Of a DNA stretch of 45,954 bases, positions 337 through 7,364 are shown piece by piece. The translations under genes and the position numbers were made by a program. The notes below the pieces were generated by a model. The model did no database searches. It saw nothing but the letters and a program-made list of their open reading frames with translations, and was not told the DNA's origin. The stretch comes from Promethearchaeota archaeon. Its GTDB lineage: Archaea > Asgardarchaeota > Lokiarchaeia > Sigyniarchaeales > SOKP01. Where the stretch lies: NCBI GenBank assembly GCA_013375475.1, contig JABXKD010000023.1, forward strand, positions 1-45,954. The letters run 5' to 3'. Every line of letters starts with the position of its first letter. Positions within the stretch are counted from its first letter, which is position 1.

Positions 337-1446
337 TCAAAACCAAGTTTTGGTTCTTCCGGTTTTATATTTATAAATGATTATTGTTGATAAGACAGCA
401 ATAATTGTGAATAGTATGAGAAGTGGATAACTTGGTATTATAGTTATAGGATCATCTATAAAGAGCGATGATATGCGAATTTCTTTAAAATATATCCCAT
501 TTTCCTCTATTACATTTTCCCCTCCCGGATGGACGCTAGCAAGTTCTTCTCCAAGATTAAAAGTAAAACTTTGATTAAAATTGTGGTTAAAGAAAAGATG
601 ACAATTCAGATTGACGGGATCAAATATATTACTATATTTTGTTGCATAATCACCTTCCATATGTACAGCATCTAAAACTTCTCTACAAGCATCAACTGTA
701 AGATTTTCCTCACTTGTTATGTCTTCAAGCATATTACATGCTGTGGTATAACGAATACATGGATAATCACCATTGTCATAATTTGCGAGGTTAAAATTAG
801 TAGACACTAAGTAATGAGAGCTAACTTTCCGTGTAAAATTAAATTCTCCCTCTGGACCAACGCTTACTACCACTGCGTCCCCTGAAGCGTCTGCTGCATG
901 AACTTGACAGCCCCAAGAATCACCTAAATAATGAGAAAGGAACCAATCAATAACCTCACTTACATTCTTACATTCCATCAGAATCTGCGCTGCCAAACTC
1001 ATATATTTCGGTTCTAGCTCAGGATGAGGATTCAAGTATACTGTCGGCAGTCCATTTCCATCTAAACATAACCCTTGATCATTCATCCCTCCCTGTATAT
1101 GTCCATCAGCAGGATCATTATTATATTTAAATCCAAAACCAACACCTCCATAAGTAGTTAAATGTCCATATGGAGTAGTAATTTCTTGAGAAGGTGCGAG
1201 CCACATATATGTTCCTGTTAAACGATAATCCTCATTATTACCAAAAAAAACCTTATTACTATAATTTACCGAAAATATGGTACAAGAATTAGGAACAATT
1301 GTATTCTGAGGAATATACGACTGTTTTACACATGTTGTGAAAGGTAGATTAGGTGTGATCAAGTATAGTAGAAATATCAGAGTAATACTTACAGGTAATA
1401 TTCTTAAGTAGTTAAGACTTTTTGATTCAAATACTTGTACTTTCAT
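337..1446 (-). CDS. Membrane-anchored N-terminal nucleophile (Ntn) cysteine hydrolase (choloylglycine hydrolase/C45-like) with Loki-CTERM-like C-terminal anchor
   Basis: N-terminal hydrophobic segment, then 'NS|CTIFSV...GNNED' (Cys nucleophile), 'GMNDQGL', 'STNF', 'RY'; C-terminus IPSY + TM helix + basic tail. Confidence 0.75.
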   Translation of the reverse strand: MKVQVFESKSLNYLRILPVSITLIFLLYLITPNLPFTTCVKQSYIPQNTIVPNSCTIFSVNYSNKVFFGNNEDYRLTGTYMWLAPSQEITTPYGHLTTYGGVGFGFKYNNDPADGHIQGGMNDQGLCLDGNGLPTVYLNPHPELEPKYMSLAAQILMECKNVSEVIDWFLSHYLGDSWGCQVHAADASGDAVVVSVGPEGEFNFTRKVSSHYLVSTNFNLANYDNGDYPCIRYTTACNMLEDITSEENLTVDACREVLDAVHMEGDYATKYSNIFDPVNLNCHLFFNHNFNQSFTFNLGEELASVHPGGENVIEENGIYFKEIRISSLFIDDPITIIPSYPLLILFTIIAVLSTIIIYKYKTGRTKTWF

Positions 1447-1638
1447 AGTCTAAAAATTCTAACAATAGTATAAAAAATTTATATAGCCCATTTTTTAATC
1501 TCTTTTTGAAAATGAAATATCAAAATAATGCAATTTACTTATTCGAAAATTTATGATTTGAAGGAGTTTTTGGCTATCTATTCCATTTGAAGTGAATTTA
1601 TGGAATTGGTTCCCTTTCATTAGTTGATTATGAAAATT

Positions 1639-1706
1639 GACGCCGTTGAGCAACGGAATTCTCAACAAGCCCCCACATATGTGTTTTAGCTTATTTCATT
1701 GACGTC
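1639..1706 (-). promoter_or_regulatory. SECIS element (eukaryote-like, type II-like) in 3'UTR of selD copy 1
   Basis: Minus strand: GACG-UCA-AUGAA-AUAAGCU-AAAA-CAC(AUAU)GUG-GG-GGCUUGU-UGAG-AAUU-CCGUU(GCUC)AACGG-CGUC; AUGA/GA core, unpaired AAA, apical mini-stem; starts 1 nt after the stop codon. Confidence 0.9.
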
Positions 1707-1707
1707 T

Positions 1708-2739
1708 TTATACTTTATCTATTTCAATATGATTAACTTCTTTCGATATCCTAACAAGTTCAGATTCTTTGTTATCTATAGTCCCTACAATCCAATTAGA
1801 TACGCCTTGAGTGGATAAAGCGTTAGAGAAATCGGCTACATTGCTCGGATCGAGAGCTAAAAGCATACCCCCGGCCGTTTCAGAACATAAGCAATCGTTA
1901 AAAGCATATCCATATTCCTCGGAAAGTTTCTTCGAGAGCTTAATTGAAGGAACCGTTTCAATGATCGCAGACAATCCAGAATTTTGTAGCATTTCTTTCA
2001 AGTGACCAGATAATCCGAAGCCAGTAACATCAGTCATAGCGTGAATAAAAGAGAAATCATCATAGGTGTAAATTGTTTTTACAACCCCTTGATTGGATGT
2101 AGTCATAAGGTTTATGGCTAAATTAATTGAATTATTAAGTTCACTCGATGAAAATTCTTCCAACATCTCAGGAGAATCTTTCTGTAACCTATAAGCTGCC
2201 ATAATTGCTTGTAATCCGATAGGTTTTGTTAGGATTAATTTATCTCCTTTTTTCACCCCGTATTTTCGGATTAAGTTGTTTTTATTTACAAAACCAGACG
2301 CTTCTCCACCAATAAGAGGCCATTCGCTATAAATTGTATGGCCTCCTACTATCTTAGAATTTATTTTTTGTTCCATGAACTTGTTAATTCCTCTGAGAAT
2401 TCCTTCTGCGATATGCATTGGAGTGTTTTTATTGATAGCTAAGAACACAAGCATTCCTGAAACTTCCGGAACATTCATCGCAAAGATGTCATTTGTAACA
2501 TTACATGCGGCGATTTCACCCATTGTTTCTGGTTCGTCGATGATTGGTGTAAAGATGTCTATACTTTTCACTTGAACCATGTCAGAATTTGGGACGGGAA
2601 CAATAGCAGCATCTTCGATAAATCCTTTTAAACCAGTTTTCTCCAGTAATTCTTCTAATTGATTTGCACCAAGTTTACATGATCAACCATAGATTTTAAC
2701 TTGCTTTGTCAATCGATAATCCTTTTTTTCTTCTGTCAT
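1708..2739 (-). CDS. selD: Selenophosphate synthetase, selenocysteine-containing (343 aa; Sec at codon 19, TGA at 2683-2685)
   Basis: Frame extends upstream of track ORF: MTEEKKDYRLTKQVKIYG-U-SCKLGANQLEELLEKTGLKGFIEDAAIVPVPNSD-MVQ...; SelD motifs DIFTPIID, NVTND, GGHT, TDVTGFGLSGHL, ETAGGML; GAGGTGA before ATG; downstream SECIS. Confidence 0.95.
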
Positions 2740-3133
2740 TCACCTCACGTTATTTGAGATAATTGTTTTTATTTAATTCTACTATGATTGTGGTATGGAT
2801 TAAAGTTTATTTAATTTTTCGATTATATTTATTATTTTTTTCGATAAGTAATAATACTAACGACTTTAGTTTGAATTATAATATACTTGTGCTATATCCC
2901 TTTATTAATATGATTTGATTTTGAGTTTAACTAAGAAAATCTTACTCAATCTAGTTTTATGTTTAATTTCCGGTTAAAACAGAAAAAAATAGAAGATTTC
3001 CAAAATCAAAAAAAAAACTCTTTAGGAGTAACAAATACCTTCATGAATTGGTACTTAAAAGAGTGGAAACGAAAAAATTTGCATAAAACAAAAAATACAA
3101 AATAATATTATAGAAAAATAAGGTTTAATTTTT

Positions 3134-3204
3134 CGATGCCGTCGTGCAACGGAGCTTTCAATAGGCATTCACTTACAGCGTTTAAGCCTATATCATTAAC
3201 ATCG
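3134..3204 (-). promoter_or_regulatory. SECIS element (eukaryote-like) in 3'UTR of selD copy 2
   Basis: Minus strand: CGAUG-UUA-AUGAU-AUAGGC-UUAAA-CGCU(GUA)AGUG-AAU-GCCUAU-UGAA-AGCU-CCGUU(GCAC)GACGG-CAUCG; same architecture as 1639-1706 with pairing-preserving changes. Confidence 0.9.
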
Positions 3205-4242
3205 TTATAATTCGGTTATTTCAACATATTCAACATCTTTTGAGACGCGAACATGTTTAGGTTTATTTATATTATCGATTTCTCCTATTATCCAATTAGA
3301 AAGGTGAAACTCTTTATCGAGTCGTTCTGAGAATTCTTCAGCATTCTCGTGATCCACAGAAAGTAACATTCCACCCGCAGTTTCAGGCATTTCTAATTCG
3401 TCAAATTTGTATCCAAATTCATACGCTAATTCCTTAGTAAGTTTAAATATCGGAACTTTCTTGATAAAAGCGGATAAGTTTGAGTTTTGAAGCATCTCTT
3501 TCAAATGCCCTGAAAGTCCAAATCCAGAAACATCTGTCATTGAGTGCACAAAAGACATATCTTCATAAGAATGGATTGCTTTTACAACGCTTTGAAGCGG
3601 TATGGTCATATACTTGACAGCTAAATCTATTGAATCATCAATTTCTTCTTTAGAAAAAGCCTTTAATAGATCAGGGTTATTTTTCTGTAATCGATAAGCT
3701 GCCATAATTGCTTGATTTCCAACGGGTTTGGTTAGTATTAATGTATCCCCCTCTTTTACGTAATTCTTTTTAATTACTTTATCTTTGTGGACAAATCCAG
3801 ATGCTTCTCCCCCAATAAGGGGCCATTCTGAGTAGATAGTGTGACCACCGAGTACTTTTGAATTAATTTTATTCTCGATAAAATTTCTTATACCTACTAA
3901 TATTCCTTCTGCGATGTGCATAGGCATATTTTTTTTCATTCCGAGAAAAACAAGCATCCCTGAGATTTCTGGGACATTTAATGCGAAAACATCATTAGTT
4001 ACGTTAGCTGCGGCTATTTCACCCGTTATTTCTAGCTCGTCGATAATTGGTGTAAAGATGTCAATATTTTTTACCATCACTAAGTCTGTGTTTGGAACCG
4101 GTATTATCGCAGAATCTTCAATATCCCCCTTCAATCCCGCATTAGCCAAGAGTGTGTTTAATTTCTTGGAATCGAGTTTACAGTTTCATCCGAATAATTT
4201 CGTTTGGAGCGTTAATCGATAACTCTCTTCTTCTTGTAACAT
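3205..4242 (-). CDS. selD: Selenophosphate synthetase paralog, selenocysteine-containing (345 aa; Sec at codon 19, TGA at 4186-4188)
   Basis: Upstream extension MLQEEESYRLTLQTKLFG-U-NCKLDSKKLNTL-LANAGLKGDIEDSA...; SelD motifs as in copy 1; GAGGTGA before ATG; downstream SECIS. Confidence 0.95.
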
Positions 4243-4454
4243 TCACCTCACGTATTTTATCTATCTTTAATACCTTATTTGGTTGTAAATTTAAAGATTC
4301 AAAAGTTATATTAATAATTTTCGTAATAATTTATTTATTTATTTATCTTTTCGATAAATATATAGAACTTATTATCAAATTTGATAAATAAAATATTAGT
4401 GTAAAAGAAGATCAATCTTTTAGTTTGTTGTATTTTAGCTGGAATCCTATACTG

Positions 4455-7364
4455 CTAAGGCAATAACAAATCAATCTTCTTTGTTATTTTATGAGCGAGG
4501 TCAAAAGGATCCTTATAATAAATATCAAGATTGACTTCGTCAACTGAAGGATCAGCTAAGTTTTTTTCAATTTTATGCTTTAATTTTAAGACATAATTAA
4601 ATTTAAACACATTTCCGGGTTTTAGTTCGTTTAAATAGAGATATTTGGGGAAACTTTCTTCACGAATAAAACTAAGGTACTCAGGTGTTTTAAGCGAGAT
4701 CTGTAAATCTGAAAATAGTAGATTTGTTGGATTATTAAGTTTAAAGTTAAAAGATATTTTATTTCCAAGAGTTTTTATGTTTTTGAAAAATAGGATTTCT
4801 CTCGGCTCAATAATATCTTCTCTTCTTGGTGAAAATAGCTCATCTTTTATTATTCGAGCATTGAGTTTATTTTTATTTACAAATTTAACAACCTTTTCTT
4901 TTAAAATATTAATGTCCATGTCGATATATGAAGCGAGATTTTCTAAGTTAATAGGATTTATGACGTCAAGATAATAATTGATTTGACTCAGAACAAGCTC
5001 GTCGTTGCTTTTCTCGGTGAAGGTTTTTAATTTGTTTATTAACATATTTTTCGCTAAAATAAACTTTTTTACTGATGGTCTCGCAAAAAGATTAAACACG
5101 TTATTATCTTCGGATATTTTGCCTACTAGGTTGTCAATTTGATTTTCATATTCTTCAATGTAATTTTGAATTTGATTAGTAGTCATCTCTATAAGCTTTC
5201 TGGCATCTGAGAATTCGCCTTTCTTTAGAAGTGTCTCTAATTTTGCTTTTATATTATCAAAATTATCGTTAAATTTTTTGAGACCTTCTATTCCTTGTGT
5301 TATAATTGATTGAATATGACCTTGAAATAATACTGAAGAAAGTAAGTTTAATTTCTGAGTATCATCAGTACCATTAGAGCGTTGGAGTTCATCTACTAGT
5401 ATATCTTTTATGGATTTTATTTTCCTGTCTAAATCGCTTAGAAATTCTTGAAGTTCAATTTTAAAACCAACCCATTTACTTAGAAGAGTTTTAAAAATCT
5501 CGTTAAATTCTACATTTTTTACCAATATATCACGAATATCGTCATCTAGTTTAAACATATAATTTCGGAGCTGCGTAATTTGGGTGAATTTCTCCTCAAT
5601 TTCTTCACTTTCAGTCTTTTCTATTACTAAATCATCTAAATGACTAAGAAAGTTATAATCCTGTATATCTTCGTATTGAGCTAACAAGATACTAATGCGA
5701 TCTTCTAAAAGTTTAATTTTTGATTTTAAATTTATGGTGAATTCTTCCTTTTTCTCTTCAAACACTTCGGAAATGAAAGCTTTAATAATGCTGAGTTCGT
5801 CCATTATCGTGACTTTAGTTTCTTCCCAATCCTCAATAAGGTTAAAAGCTAACCTTTTGTATTCGAATTTATTTAATCTTTTATTAAATTTCTTTATTTT
5901 ATTTAGGATTTTACGATATATCTTATCTAGCTCTATTTCAGTTTGGTGAAATTTGAATTCTTTTATGAATTTAGACATTTTTTCCCGAAATTGAGCGGGT
6001 ATTTTTTGAAACTCCTGAATTTTTTTATGAAATATATCAAGATCTTCGTTGACTTCTTGAATTATTTCATCAATTTCTTGAAAGTTCGCTTTAATATTCT
6101 TTATTGTATAAAGAATTTCCTCAATGACATCTGGATCATTTTCAATTTTCAAATTTTTCTCCAATTCAATAAAAATCCAGACTGCAACTTTTTGACTCTC
6201 TAATATAAAACAGATATTTCGGAGTAGGATAATTGTTTTTTTTCGTTCCCGCCAATATTTTGATTCTAGAATATATAAAATCTTTGTGATCTCATTTTCA
6301 ATTTCTACTTGATACTCCTCGTAAAGGCGCTTGAAAACGAGTGCGACTCCACCTCTGACATTTTCTGATGGATTTTCAAATTCTTCAAAAATATAGTTGA
6401 AAATTTCAATAATATTACTCTGACATAGATGGTAGAGAGCGTTAATAACTGTATTTCGAAATTCAGAATCACCAGTATAGAGAGCAGTAATTAAGTTGGC
6501 CCAAATTTGATCAAAATTATTCTCTGCTATAGTTACGAGTGAATCAATAACGCGGAGTTGGATTCGATAATTATTCTCTTTTAGGAGATTTATCAACTTT
6601 GGAATAATTGGGATTATTTCAGAAGACTTTTCTTTTCCAATTTCTCCGAATAACCAAATTATTAACTCCTTAACCCGGGATTCTTCGTTGTAAAGAAGAT
6701 TTAATAGGACATAAGTTATTTTTTCTTTAGATAAAAAGTAAGTCCCAAGAATTTTTAGCAGCTCTGCTGCCGATCTTGCAACATCGTCATCTTCATCTCT
6801 TAAGTTGACGATTATGATCGATAATAATGGTTCATACTCGCGGATCTTCGTAAAATCTTGATTCAAGATTTTTTTAAGCGTTTTAATTACTTGAAGCTTA
6901 ACTTTCCAGTCGTTATCCATTAATTTCTCAGTAAACTCTTCAATAATGTTTTGTAATTCCTCTCTATCGATGTGTAAAGAGAGAATTAAATTTCCCATAA
7001 TCTTAACTGCTAAACGTCTAATAGAAGATTCTTGATCAAATAATCGTAATCTAATCTCCTGTATTAGATCAATTAGTAAATTCGGACGATACATAGTTAT
7101 TTGGTAAAGAATTTCTAATGACACTAGTCTAACCCAAGAATTAAGATCGTTTATCGTGTTAGCTAAGTTTTTAACTGTTCTTAATGAAATTGCGGGAGAT
7201 TTATCACAGATTTTATTCAACAACATTAAACTGTCATAAATTAATTCTTTATCGGAATTGGCAGGGTTTTCAATAATTTCAAAAAGTTCACCAGCTGCTT
7301 TTTCGTAGCTACCACTTAAAATCAAATCCTCAACTTTTTTTATATCTAGGTTTATACTAGTCAA
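4455..7364 (-). CDS. Large HEAT-repeat protein with central coiled coil, PCI/winged-helix-like segment and C-terminal Ig-like beta-sandwich
   Basis: HEAT repeats (D..SWVRLVSL, DQESSIRRLA, DNDWKVKLQV, DEDDDVARSAA, ENPSENVRGGVA); long helical middle; 'INLENLASYIDMDINILKEKVVKFVNKNKLNARII'; beta-rich C-terminus; TTG start. Confidence 0.7.
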   Translation of the reverse strand: MTSINLDIKKVEDLILSGSYEKAAGELFEIIENPANSDKELIYDSLMLLNKICDKSPAISLRTVKNLANTINDLNSWVRLVSLEILYQITMYRPNLLIDLIQEIRLRLFDQESSIRRLAVKIMGNLILSLHIDREELQNIIEEFTEKLMDNDWKVKLQVIKTLKKILNQDFTKIREYEPLLSIIIVNLRDEDDDVARSAAELLKILGTYFLSKEKITYVLLNLLYNEESRVKELIIWLFGEIGKEKSSEIIPIIPKLINLLKENNYRIQLRVIDSLVTIAENNFDQIWANLITALYTGDSEFRNTVINALYHLCQSNIIEIFNYIFEEFENPSENVRGGVALVFKRLYEEYQVEIENEITKILYILESKYWRERKKTIILLRNICFILESQKVAVWIFIELEKNLKIENDPDVIEEILYTIKNIKANFQEIDEIIQEVNEDLDIFHKKIQEFQKIPAQFREKMSKFIKEFKFHQTEIELDKIYRKILNKIKKFNKRLNKFEYKRLAFNLIEDWEETKVTIMDELSIIKAFISEVFEEKKEEFTINLKSKIKLLEDRISILLAQYEDIQDYNFLSHLDDLVIEKTESEEIEEKFTQITQLRNYMFKLDDDIRDILVKNVEFNEIFKTLLSKWVGFKIELQEFLSDLDRKIKSIKDILVDELQRSNGTDDTQKLNLLSSVLFQGHIQSIITQGIEGLKKFNDNFDNIKAKLETLLKKGEFSDARKLIEMTTNQIQNYIEEYENQIDNLVGKISEDNNVFNLFARPSVKKFILAKNMLINKLKTFTEKSNDELVLSQINYYLDVINPINLENLASYIDMDINILKEKVVKFVNKNKLNARIIKDELFSPRREDIIEPREILFFKNIKTLGNKISFNFKLNNPTNLLFSDLQISLKTPEYLSFIREESFPKYLYLNELKPGNVFKFNYVLKLKHKIEKNLADPSVDEVNLDIYYKDPFDLAHKITKKIDLLLP

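Follow-up and report, generated by a model that had tools for sequence, protein, structure and literature searches.

The window analysed here, the whole 45,954-nucleotide (nt) stretch of contig JABXKD010000023.1 (assembly GCA_013375475.1) from an archaeon of the Lokiarchaeia, carries two neighbouring minus-strand genes for SelD (selenophosphate synthetase, SPS), the enzyme that makes the selenium donor of selenocysteine (Sec, U). The upstream paralogue, selD-A (4242-3205), encodes 345 amino acids (aa) plus a stop codon and has the motif GUNCK and Leu216, both derived; the downstream paralogue, selD-B (2739-1708), encodes 343 aa plus a stop codon, has the motif GUSCK, keeps Asn216 and is of ancestral type. 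The read-through translation of either gene contains a single U, at codon 19, contributed by an in-frame TGA on the minus strand (4188-4186 in selD-A, context LFGUNCKLD; 2685-2683 in selD-B, context IYGUSCKLG). A mechanical list of open reading frames (ORFs) starts both genes downstream of this codon, at 1708..2580 (290 aa, selD-B) and 3205..4149 (314 aa, selD-A), minus strand. A preliminary description of this DNA, made from the sequence alone, had recognised that both calls are N-terminally truncated and that reading through codon 19 restores GUSCK and GUNCK, and the full-length translations agree with it on both points.

Both products score above the cut-off of 125 bits on the NCBIfam selD equivalog model TIGR00476 (171 bits for selD-A, 204 bits for selD-B) and under the cut-off of 291 bits of the narrower model NF010705 (253 and 278 bits). 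The Pfam domains AIRS (PF00586) and AIRS_C (PF02769) are above cut-off in both proteins, which predicts the PurM-type two-domain fold, and the closest solved relatives of both copies are all selenide, water dikinases. The 3.92-Mb assembly contains no third selD; the next matches belong to other PurM families and are 24-25% identical. The two copies are 63% identical to each other (214/342), and therefore the pair is not an assembly duplicate, as the preliminary description had also held.

The intergenic spacer (2740..3120, minus strand) carries T-tracts after selD-A's SECIS (Sec insertion sequence), followed by an AT-rich stretch and GAGGTGA ahead of the selD-B start codon. In addition, the ribosome-binding context ACGTGAGGTGAATG is identical ahead of both selD start codons. 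Judging from these features, the spacer probably holds a terminator for selD-A and a separate promoter for selD-B, so that each gene would be expressed on its own transcript. Upstream of selD-A lies a gene for a HEAT-repeat protein (4455..7364, minus strand; Pfam HEAT), a conserved neighbour that anchors the locus and is itself outside the Sec system.

Sec codons, SECIS elements and the Sec machinery

Homologues of selD were found in 38 of 41 genomes (own, genus and order), with one in-frame TGA in every full-length match. When the N-terminus was extracted from two sets of relatives (50 and 57 genes), TGA was present at the Sec codon in 107 of 107 genes, comprising 34/34 A-type, 60/60 B-type and 13/13 outgroup genes. 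Therefore, the TGA codons are not sequencing errors, a possibility that the preliminary description had raised against its own reading.

A SECIS element directly follows each gene. That of selD-A lies at 3121..3207 (minus strand, AUGA at 3196-3193, 90.3 bits with the model described below, the match taking in the TAA stop codon), and that of selD-B, with the same architecture, at 1625..1710 (minus strand, AUGA at 1699-1696, 87.1 bits). Both elements are 86-87 nt long and start at the stop codon, with the AUGA 992 nt (selD-A) or 986 nt (selD-B) past the UGA, in keeping with the preliminary description, which had placed a SECIS directly after each stop, about 980 nt from the UGA. Over the roughly 85 nt past their stops the two genes share about 75% identity, and these stretches have the same fold: helix I, AUGA, a 6-bp helix II, an AAAC bulge, a 3-bp ministem, UGA, a 5-bp side hairpin and the return strand of helix I. 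The folding-energy z-scores are -1.1 (selD-A) and -2.6 (selD-B), and folding energy by itself is therefore weak evidence for these elements.

Covariation is more informative. For 35 selD genes of the genus, we aligned the corresponding stretch with MAFFT, and RNAalifold recovered helices I and II from this alignment. Across the 35 elements, 93.4% of the cells are paired, compared to 28-48% in controls with the partner shifted by 1-3 columns, and compensatory changes occur in 11 of the 19 pairs; helix II is 99.5% paired with four of its six pairs compensatory, and pairing in the ministem reaches 84.8%. Two motifs never vary (35/35), namely UGA within the 5' AUGA and GA on the 3' side, and the leading A is variable (the two window elements have AAUGA). 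From these 35 elements we built a covariance model, which matches the 3.92-Mb own genome in exactly two places, after selD-A and after selD-B, among the best 150 of 2088 first-look candidates that were scored. Over 80 sources the model gives 95 matches, with 91 of them directly 3' of selD stops; three weak matches (30-31 bits) come after single-copy genes from other families, and one further weak match lies in G001 (see below). Fitting all 95 elements to the model gave an alignment, biased toward the input structure, in which 96.3% of the cells are paired and all 19 pairs show a compensatory change. The side hairpin forms a third arm that separates the core's 3' GA from helix I (about 3143-3129 and 1647-1634 in the window). 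It occupies the same place in all family elements, its loop is often GNRA-like, and compensatory changes are seen in 5/5 of its pairs in the fitted alignment.

Six family selD genes have no match to the model at E up to 0.01 despite available 3' flank: L120 (G065), L121 (G064) and L123 (G070) of genus g21, L125 (G052), and the B copies L099 (G076) and L110 (G124). These genes may have divergent SECIS elements or, for L110, a flank that is too short. The Rfam models report neither a SECIS nor any other family at gathering score in the window, and only chance-level matches at E up to 10 in the region 1400-4400. Altogether, the structure and covariation identify the selD elements as Asgard eukaryote-like SECIS of the type II form, with a predicted role in directing Sec insertion.

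The machinery that such recoding requires is encoded elsewhere in the same genome. SepSecS scores 473 bits against a cut-off of 225 (Pfam SepSecS, 381 bits), a SelB-type GTPase carries the archaeal Pfam domain aSelB_III (41.4 bits against 19), and a kinase of the PSTK/KTI12 family is present (Pfam KTI12, 138 bits). For tRNA-Sec, an 89-nt gene lies above the Rfam gathering score in 12 of 26 genomes of the genus. In the own genome, the Rfam tRNA-Sec model gives nothing over 27 bits, the matches at that level being ordinary tRNAs, and ARAGORN finds neither a tRNA in the window nor a tRNA-Sec in the genome. A blastn search with the tRNA-Sec of four relatives located the gene at about 26970-26830 of another contig (G000:C230, minus strand), directly upstream of SepSecS. 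It contains a 28-nt intron at the canonical 37/38 site, with the bulge-helix-bulge motif CUUC/GAAG, and a second interruption of about 30 nt in the T-loop; G-CCA follows exon 3. The standard tools missed this tRNA-Sec because its gene carries two introns. Thus, an absence of Sec machinery, which the preliminary description had named as grounds for giving up the selenoprotein assignment, is not what we find.

The assembly is a metagenome-assembled genome of 288 contigs with an estimated contamination of 6.4%. A second, partial SepSecS (176 bits) is found at G000:C131:120-563, on a contig of 602 bases, and probably reflects strain heterogeneity or contamination.

Two orthologous groups of selD

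The residue that follows Sec separates the two copies across the family. All 34 A-type genes have GUNCK and all 60 B-type genes have GUSCK, and the single-copy selD genes of the order's other families (n = 13) have GUSCK in 12 cases and GUACK in one. Aligned to solved proteins, U19-N-C-K of selD-A and U19-S-C-K of selD-B correspond to C-G-C-K in Escherichia coli SelD and to C-S-C-K in Leishmania major SelD (motif GCSCK). Since GUSCK is present in B-type and most outgroup genes, Ser after Sec is the lineage norm. The preliminary description had regarded the residues of both copies as non-canonical; with respect to this motif, by comparison of these sequences, the derived copy is selD-A only, with Asn in place of Ser20.

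Across 109 aligned SelD sequences (36 A-type, 60 B-type and 13 outgroup), U19, C21, K22, D61, D68, N80, D84 and D237 are invariant, a count that leaves out the first residues of the two insert-interrupted A copies described below. From the alignment, we take D61, D68, N80, D84 and D237 to be ligands of the ATP/metal site. On this conserved background, the A-type proteins carry three fixed changes: Ser20Asn inside the U-x-C-K loop (34/34), Asn216Leu (36/36) and Thr239Ser in the TDVTGFG motif (36/36). A fourth change, Ala234Ser, is found in 35 of 36. At position 216, Asn is present in 56/60 B-type and 13/13 outgroup proteins, and this residue (in the stretch "M..LN") aligns to Asn in the SelD of E. 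coli, Aquifex aeolicus and L. major. Near this position, human SPS1 aligns without gaps and at low confidence; an Asn stands four residues off. Among the B-type genes themselves, position 216 is Ile, Thr or Ser in 4/60, and the A-type states Ser234 and Ser239 each occur in 4/60.

The A-type copies have a restricted distribution. Calling an A-type gene where a copy is at least 67% identical to selD-A, we surveyed 135 genomes of the family and found such copies in genus g1, to which the window belongs (at least 22 of 41 genomes), and in genus g22 (at least 37 of 54 genomes), that is, in at least 59 of the 135, and in 0 of 40 genomes of the 11 other genera, among the matches listed. The gene order is HEAT, selD-A, selD-B, with A upstream of B wherever both share a contig, long examples being G084:C1 (2.27 Mb) and G124:C1 (about 1 Mb). 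Of the 65 family loci inspected, most have the HEAT gene upstream of selD-A or, in single-copy genomes, abutting selD-B. For instance, in the single-copy genome G014 the HEAT protein is 97% and the SelD-B protein 90% identical to that of the window, and the gap between HEAT and selD-B is about 209 nt; the same adjacency without selD-A is seen in G142, G001 and the G010/G017-G021 group. No sampled genome keeps selD-A without selD-B on an uninterrupted contig, and the A-only cases (G022, G024 and G011) are at contig ends. Since A is repeatedly absent and B was never seen lost, B looks indispensable and A accessory.

Two side observations concern the intergenic regions. In G001, which has no selD-A, a weak SECIS-model match (L059:2362-2467, 33.5 bits) lies between HEAT and selD-B and may be a remnant of a lost A copy. 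The spacer between A and B measures 1.7-2.9 kb in L056 (G008), L057 (G004), L073 (G003), L096 (G098) and L113 (G139), as opposed to 0.25-0.5 kb elsewhere, and something has therefore been inserted there.

In quick maximum-likelihood trees (LG+G4, with support from the Shimodaira-Hasegawa-like approximate likelihood ratio test, SH-aLRT), the A clade is monophyletic with a support of 99 in both the 16-row and the 36-row tree. Broadly, branching within A matches branching within B, and A is placed at or near the base of the family B sequences, with G043 unplaced. On these gene trees, the duplication is older than the split between g1 and g22, and it may be as old as the family.

Selection on the two copies was estimated by the Nei-Gojobori method, using species pairs that are not independent. 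Between A and B, the synonymous distance (dS) is at least 1.8 or saturated in each of the 13 genomes in which both copies are complete. Among orthologues, omega, the ratio of nonsynonymous (dN) to synonymous distance, has a median of 0.095 in A and 0.120 in B (16 pairs with dS <1.5 in both genes), and in 67 of 78 species pairs dN is lower for A than for B. Purifying selection acts on both copies and neither evolves neutrally; neutral evolution of one copy is another outcome that the preliminary description had named against its own reading. Taken together, the sequences point to an asymmetry, in which selD-A has Leu216, evolves more slowly than selD-B and has been lost repeatedly.

A 31-nt insert in selD-A of two relatives

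In two genomes of genus g22, the selD-A gene is interrupted by a 31-nt insert located one base after the Sec TGA (L108:711-741 in G096 and L109:682-712 in G094). The insert, in the context GGN UGA A / 31 nt / AC UGU AAR, breaks the frame, and its removal restores G-U-N-C-K. The gene bodies are open and, between the two genomes, have dN of 0.086, dS of 1.30 and omega of 0.066; moreover, conservation extends to the ribosome-binding site and the first 19 codons, and a SECIS element follows both genes (84.8 and 82.6 bits). Therefore, the interrupted selD-A genes seem to be still in use.

The two inserts are identical at 15 of 31 positions (hand count) and share a potential bulge-helix-bulge structure, which conforms exactly to the archaeal rule as calibrated on the tRNA-Sec intron of the own genome. 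The central helix has 4 bp, GUUG/CAAC in one genome and GCUG/CAGU in the second, and shows one compensatory change. The splice sites fall within bulges of 3 nt (AA|A or AA|U, and AU|A), and a helix internal to the insert abuts the motif. In both genomes, minimum-free-energy folding of the local segment gives this structure, which, with its weak outer exon-exon helix, is of the relaxed HBh' form. Over 151,616 positions, the background rate of the motif is 2.4e-4 per position for the strict and 3.6e-3 for the loose version. On this basis, we predict with moderate confidence that the insert is a spliced intron. Two alternatives were considered and rejected, namely frameshifting by +1 at CUG-UAA and initiation further downstream: the U-x-C-K loop would be broken, and in G094 a stop lies in the needed frame.

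The two interrupted copies are not sisters, G096 pairing with the intact copy of G084 (SH-aLRT 97), and the insert must therefore have been gained or lost, as reported for cbf5. A DNA contig of a public sequencing run contains the insert without differences, an agreement that is not independent given that this run may come from the source sample itself; in a relative from that run, precisely these 31 nt are missing. In the RNA run X17, 4% of the sampled words are present, and the contig there derives from the gene of a relative. A pattern scan of metagenomes for further interrupted selD-A genes was dominated by an unrelated repeat of a single assembly, with 0 of 80 fetched loci encoding selD among the matches listed, a result that does not imply absence.

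An intron of this type was reportedly described by Watanabe in 2002 in the cbf5 pre-mRNA of Crenarchaeota. As of 2020, the available text of one source lists as known mRNA cases only cbf5 and one in a 5' untranslated region (UTR) of Haloferax (PMC7714728), and the cbf5 intron is described as patchy among close relatives (Yokobori 2009, PMC2738675). The insert in selD-A resembles it in being a short predicted tRNA-type intron within coding sequence with such a patchy presence (PMC2738675); it differs in the gene, in the phylum (Asgard), in its position one base after a Sec codon and in being known from DNA only. Asgard archaea are described to have a broad-specificity (alpha-beta)2 endonuclease (PMC5829648). 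Our literature searches found no case of a bulge-helix-bulge intron in an Asgard protein gene, and a 2026 preprint on Asgard tRNA introns is, in its available text, silent on mRNA. If the prediction is true, in some species the tRNA-splicing machinery would have to cut and rejoin the message one base past the Sec codon, and this would be, as far as these searches show, the first in-frame intron of its kind in an Asgard protein gene and the first in a selenoprotein mRNA.

Interpretation and comparison with known systems

With a probability that we put at roughly 85%, both genes encode Sec-containing SelD/SPS proteins recoded through their own SECIS elements, and they arose by an old tandem duplication that left selD-B as the housekeeping and selD-A as the accessory copy. 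According to this model, UGA19 in each gene would be decoded by Sec-tRNA-Sec, delivered by the archaeal SelB under the direction of the gene's own 3'-UTR SECIS about 990 nt downstream, with SelB, tRNA-Sec, PSTK and SepSecS supplied from elsewhere in the genome. The duplication would have placed the new copy between the HEAT-repeat gene and the original selD. The ancestral-type selD-B would then supply selenophosphate for housekeeping, and selD-A would be a constrained and dispensable variant, with an altered catalytic loop and the loss of a conserved Asn, that can be lost without loss of the Sec trait. The chances seem to us about even that selD-A is still an enzyme acting on selenide and ATP, with altered specificity or regulation.

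Several observations weigh against this model. At position 216, selD-A has lost an Asn that is conserved in the SelD of E. coli, A. aeolicus and L. major, such that an inactive selenophosphate synthetase is conceivable. The SelB candidate scores 226 bits on the bacterial selB model, under the cut-off of 242, and the PSTK candidate 167.8 bits on TIGR03574, under the NCBIfam cut-off of 290.5. Maturation of the tRNA-Sec, missed by the RNA models and by ARAGORN, needs two splicing events. A second selenium pathway that would need its own SelD was not found, selU (TIGR03167) and yqeB (TIGR03309) giving no match in the own genome and senA/senB not having been searched for. Support for the monophyly of B is weak (SH-aLRT 9 in the smaller and 87 in the larger tree), and since these are gene trees without a species tree, the date of the duplication is rough. 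Finally, loss and original absence of selD-A are indistinguishable in the 11 other genera.

Two explanations dispute the gene pair itself. If the TGA codons were true stops, as the ORF list implies, shorter proteins would begin at the ATG or TTG codons that are available downstream. Such products would be devoid of the catalytic Sec/Cys-Lys loop. The 18 codons ahead of the TGA and the U-x-C-K loop are conserved at the protein level in 107 genes, and the co-varying SECIS lies downstream (91 model matches after selD stops, against the six family genes without a match), which makes this reading highly improbable. An assembly artefact or a chimera of two strains might be suspected in a fragmented, 288-contig metagenome-assembled genome with some estimated contamination and a second partial SepSecS on a short contig, but it is barely credible given copies that are only 63% identical and that stand in the order A-then-B on single contigs of up to 2.27 Mb in dozens of species.

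The remaining explanations accept the pair and differ as to what selD-A does. It could be neofunctionalised in the manner of SPS1 with its Sec kept, leaving selD-B as the sole supplier of selenophosphate. The fixed changes at conserved sites (Ser20Asn, Asn216Leu and Thr239Ser), with Asn216 aligned to Asn in three solved proteins, speak for this, as do the frequent absence of A where the Sec-encoding B persists and the lower dN of A, an asymmetry likewise described between animal SPS1 and SPS2 (PMC4561486). Nonetheless, selD-A retains Sec, Cys21, Lys22, Asn80, the four presumed Asp ligands and a full SECIS, the hallmark of SPS1 is the loss of Sec or Cys, and no partner pathway came up in the searches for selU and yqeB (senA/senB not being covered), so that we consider this reading rather unlikely. 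In a broader and equally tentative form, to which we would give no more than a minor share of our confidence, selD-A would be a separate Sec-enzyme lineage with a job beyond bulk selenophosphate, a Sec-keeping counterpart of the SPS1/SPS2 split, its mRNA being spliced in some species. Alternatively, the copies could be redundant, the second raising the dose or the robustness of selenophosphate supply. Neither copy has lost any catalytic residue or its SECIS, many species do without A, and "a more active role in Sec biosynthesis" is one suggestion in the available text of Huang 2024 (PMC11227280). Yet omega has stayed near 0.1 over a saturated synonymous distance, the paralogue-specific residues are fixed, with substitutions at otherwise invariant sites, and the A copy is present in at least 59 genomes; pure redundancy is seldom so long-lived, and we regard it as unlikely here.

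Since SelD makes the selenium donor and appears to be itself a selenoprotein, it would place a feedback loop on the whole Sec system. Furthermore, Asgard selD and its SECIS are currently discussed as a bridge to the eukaryotic Sec system. A conserved and repeatedly lost pair, with few fixed differences in or near the catalytic loop, represents a clean natural experiment, through which one could address the limits and specialisation of selenophosphate synthesis and whether a second SPS function can precede the loss of Sec, the open question for animal SPS1. The practical value is modest and consists of the annotation of two genes truncated by ORF callers and of a tRNA-Sec missed by finders.

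For the most part, the pair refines known biology, as a Sec-containing SelD with a special SECIS in Lokiarchaeota and multi-copy selD are already published. Mariotti et al. 2016 described a Loki SPS selenoprotein with an "SPS lokiSECIS" (PMC4989117), and the genes of the window share with it the homologous N-terminal Sec and the 3'-UTR SECIS directly downstream, with the same AUGA/GA core, shorter main stem and extra apical ministem of type II-like form. The Loki SPS is single-copy there, whereas two tandem copies are found here, and the co-varying third arm is unmentioned in the available text of that paper. Huang, Xiao and Zhang 2024 reported 51 Loki- and Thorarchaeia organisms with at least two selD genes and a type II eSECIS-like selD form (PMC11227280), to which our core, upper helix, A-rich bulge and ministem correspond. 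Their search patterns are given as core, upper stem and apical loop only, with the side hairpin unmentioned in the available text, and they speculate on a more active role or a new function for multi-copy selD (PMC11227280). A 2026 review, as far as its available text goes, adds nothing on selD copy number. What our analysis adds is the A/B orthology with its signature residues, the restriction of A to two genera, the fixed gene order, the recurrent loss of A, and the recognition of GUSCK as ordinary; neither the tandem order, the A/B orthology and the GUNCK plus Asn216Leu signature nor the two-genera restriction and recurrent A loss appear in the available text of Huang 2024, and its gene tables may list tandem or GUNCK copies (PMC11227280).

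The preliminary description had also suggested an archaeal parallel to the SPS1/SPS2 split of animals. In the strict sense the parallel is not supported, with both copies keeping Sec, Cys21, Lys22, the presumed Asp ligands and the SECIS; in a softer sense it survives as the asymmetry of Leu216, slower evolution and losses in selD-A. Animal SPS1 has Thr, Arg, Gly or an unrecoded UGA at the Sec position, without a SECIS, and no selenophosphate activity (PMC4561486). The two systems are alike in that a Sec-containing SPS was duplicated and one copy then became more constrained, and they differ in that both archaeal copies keep Sec, the Cys-Lys pair and the SECIS element.

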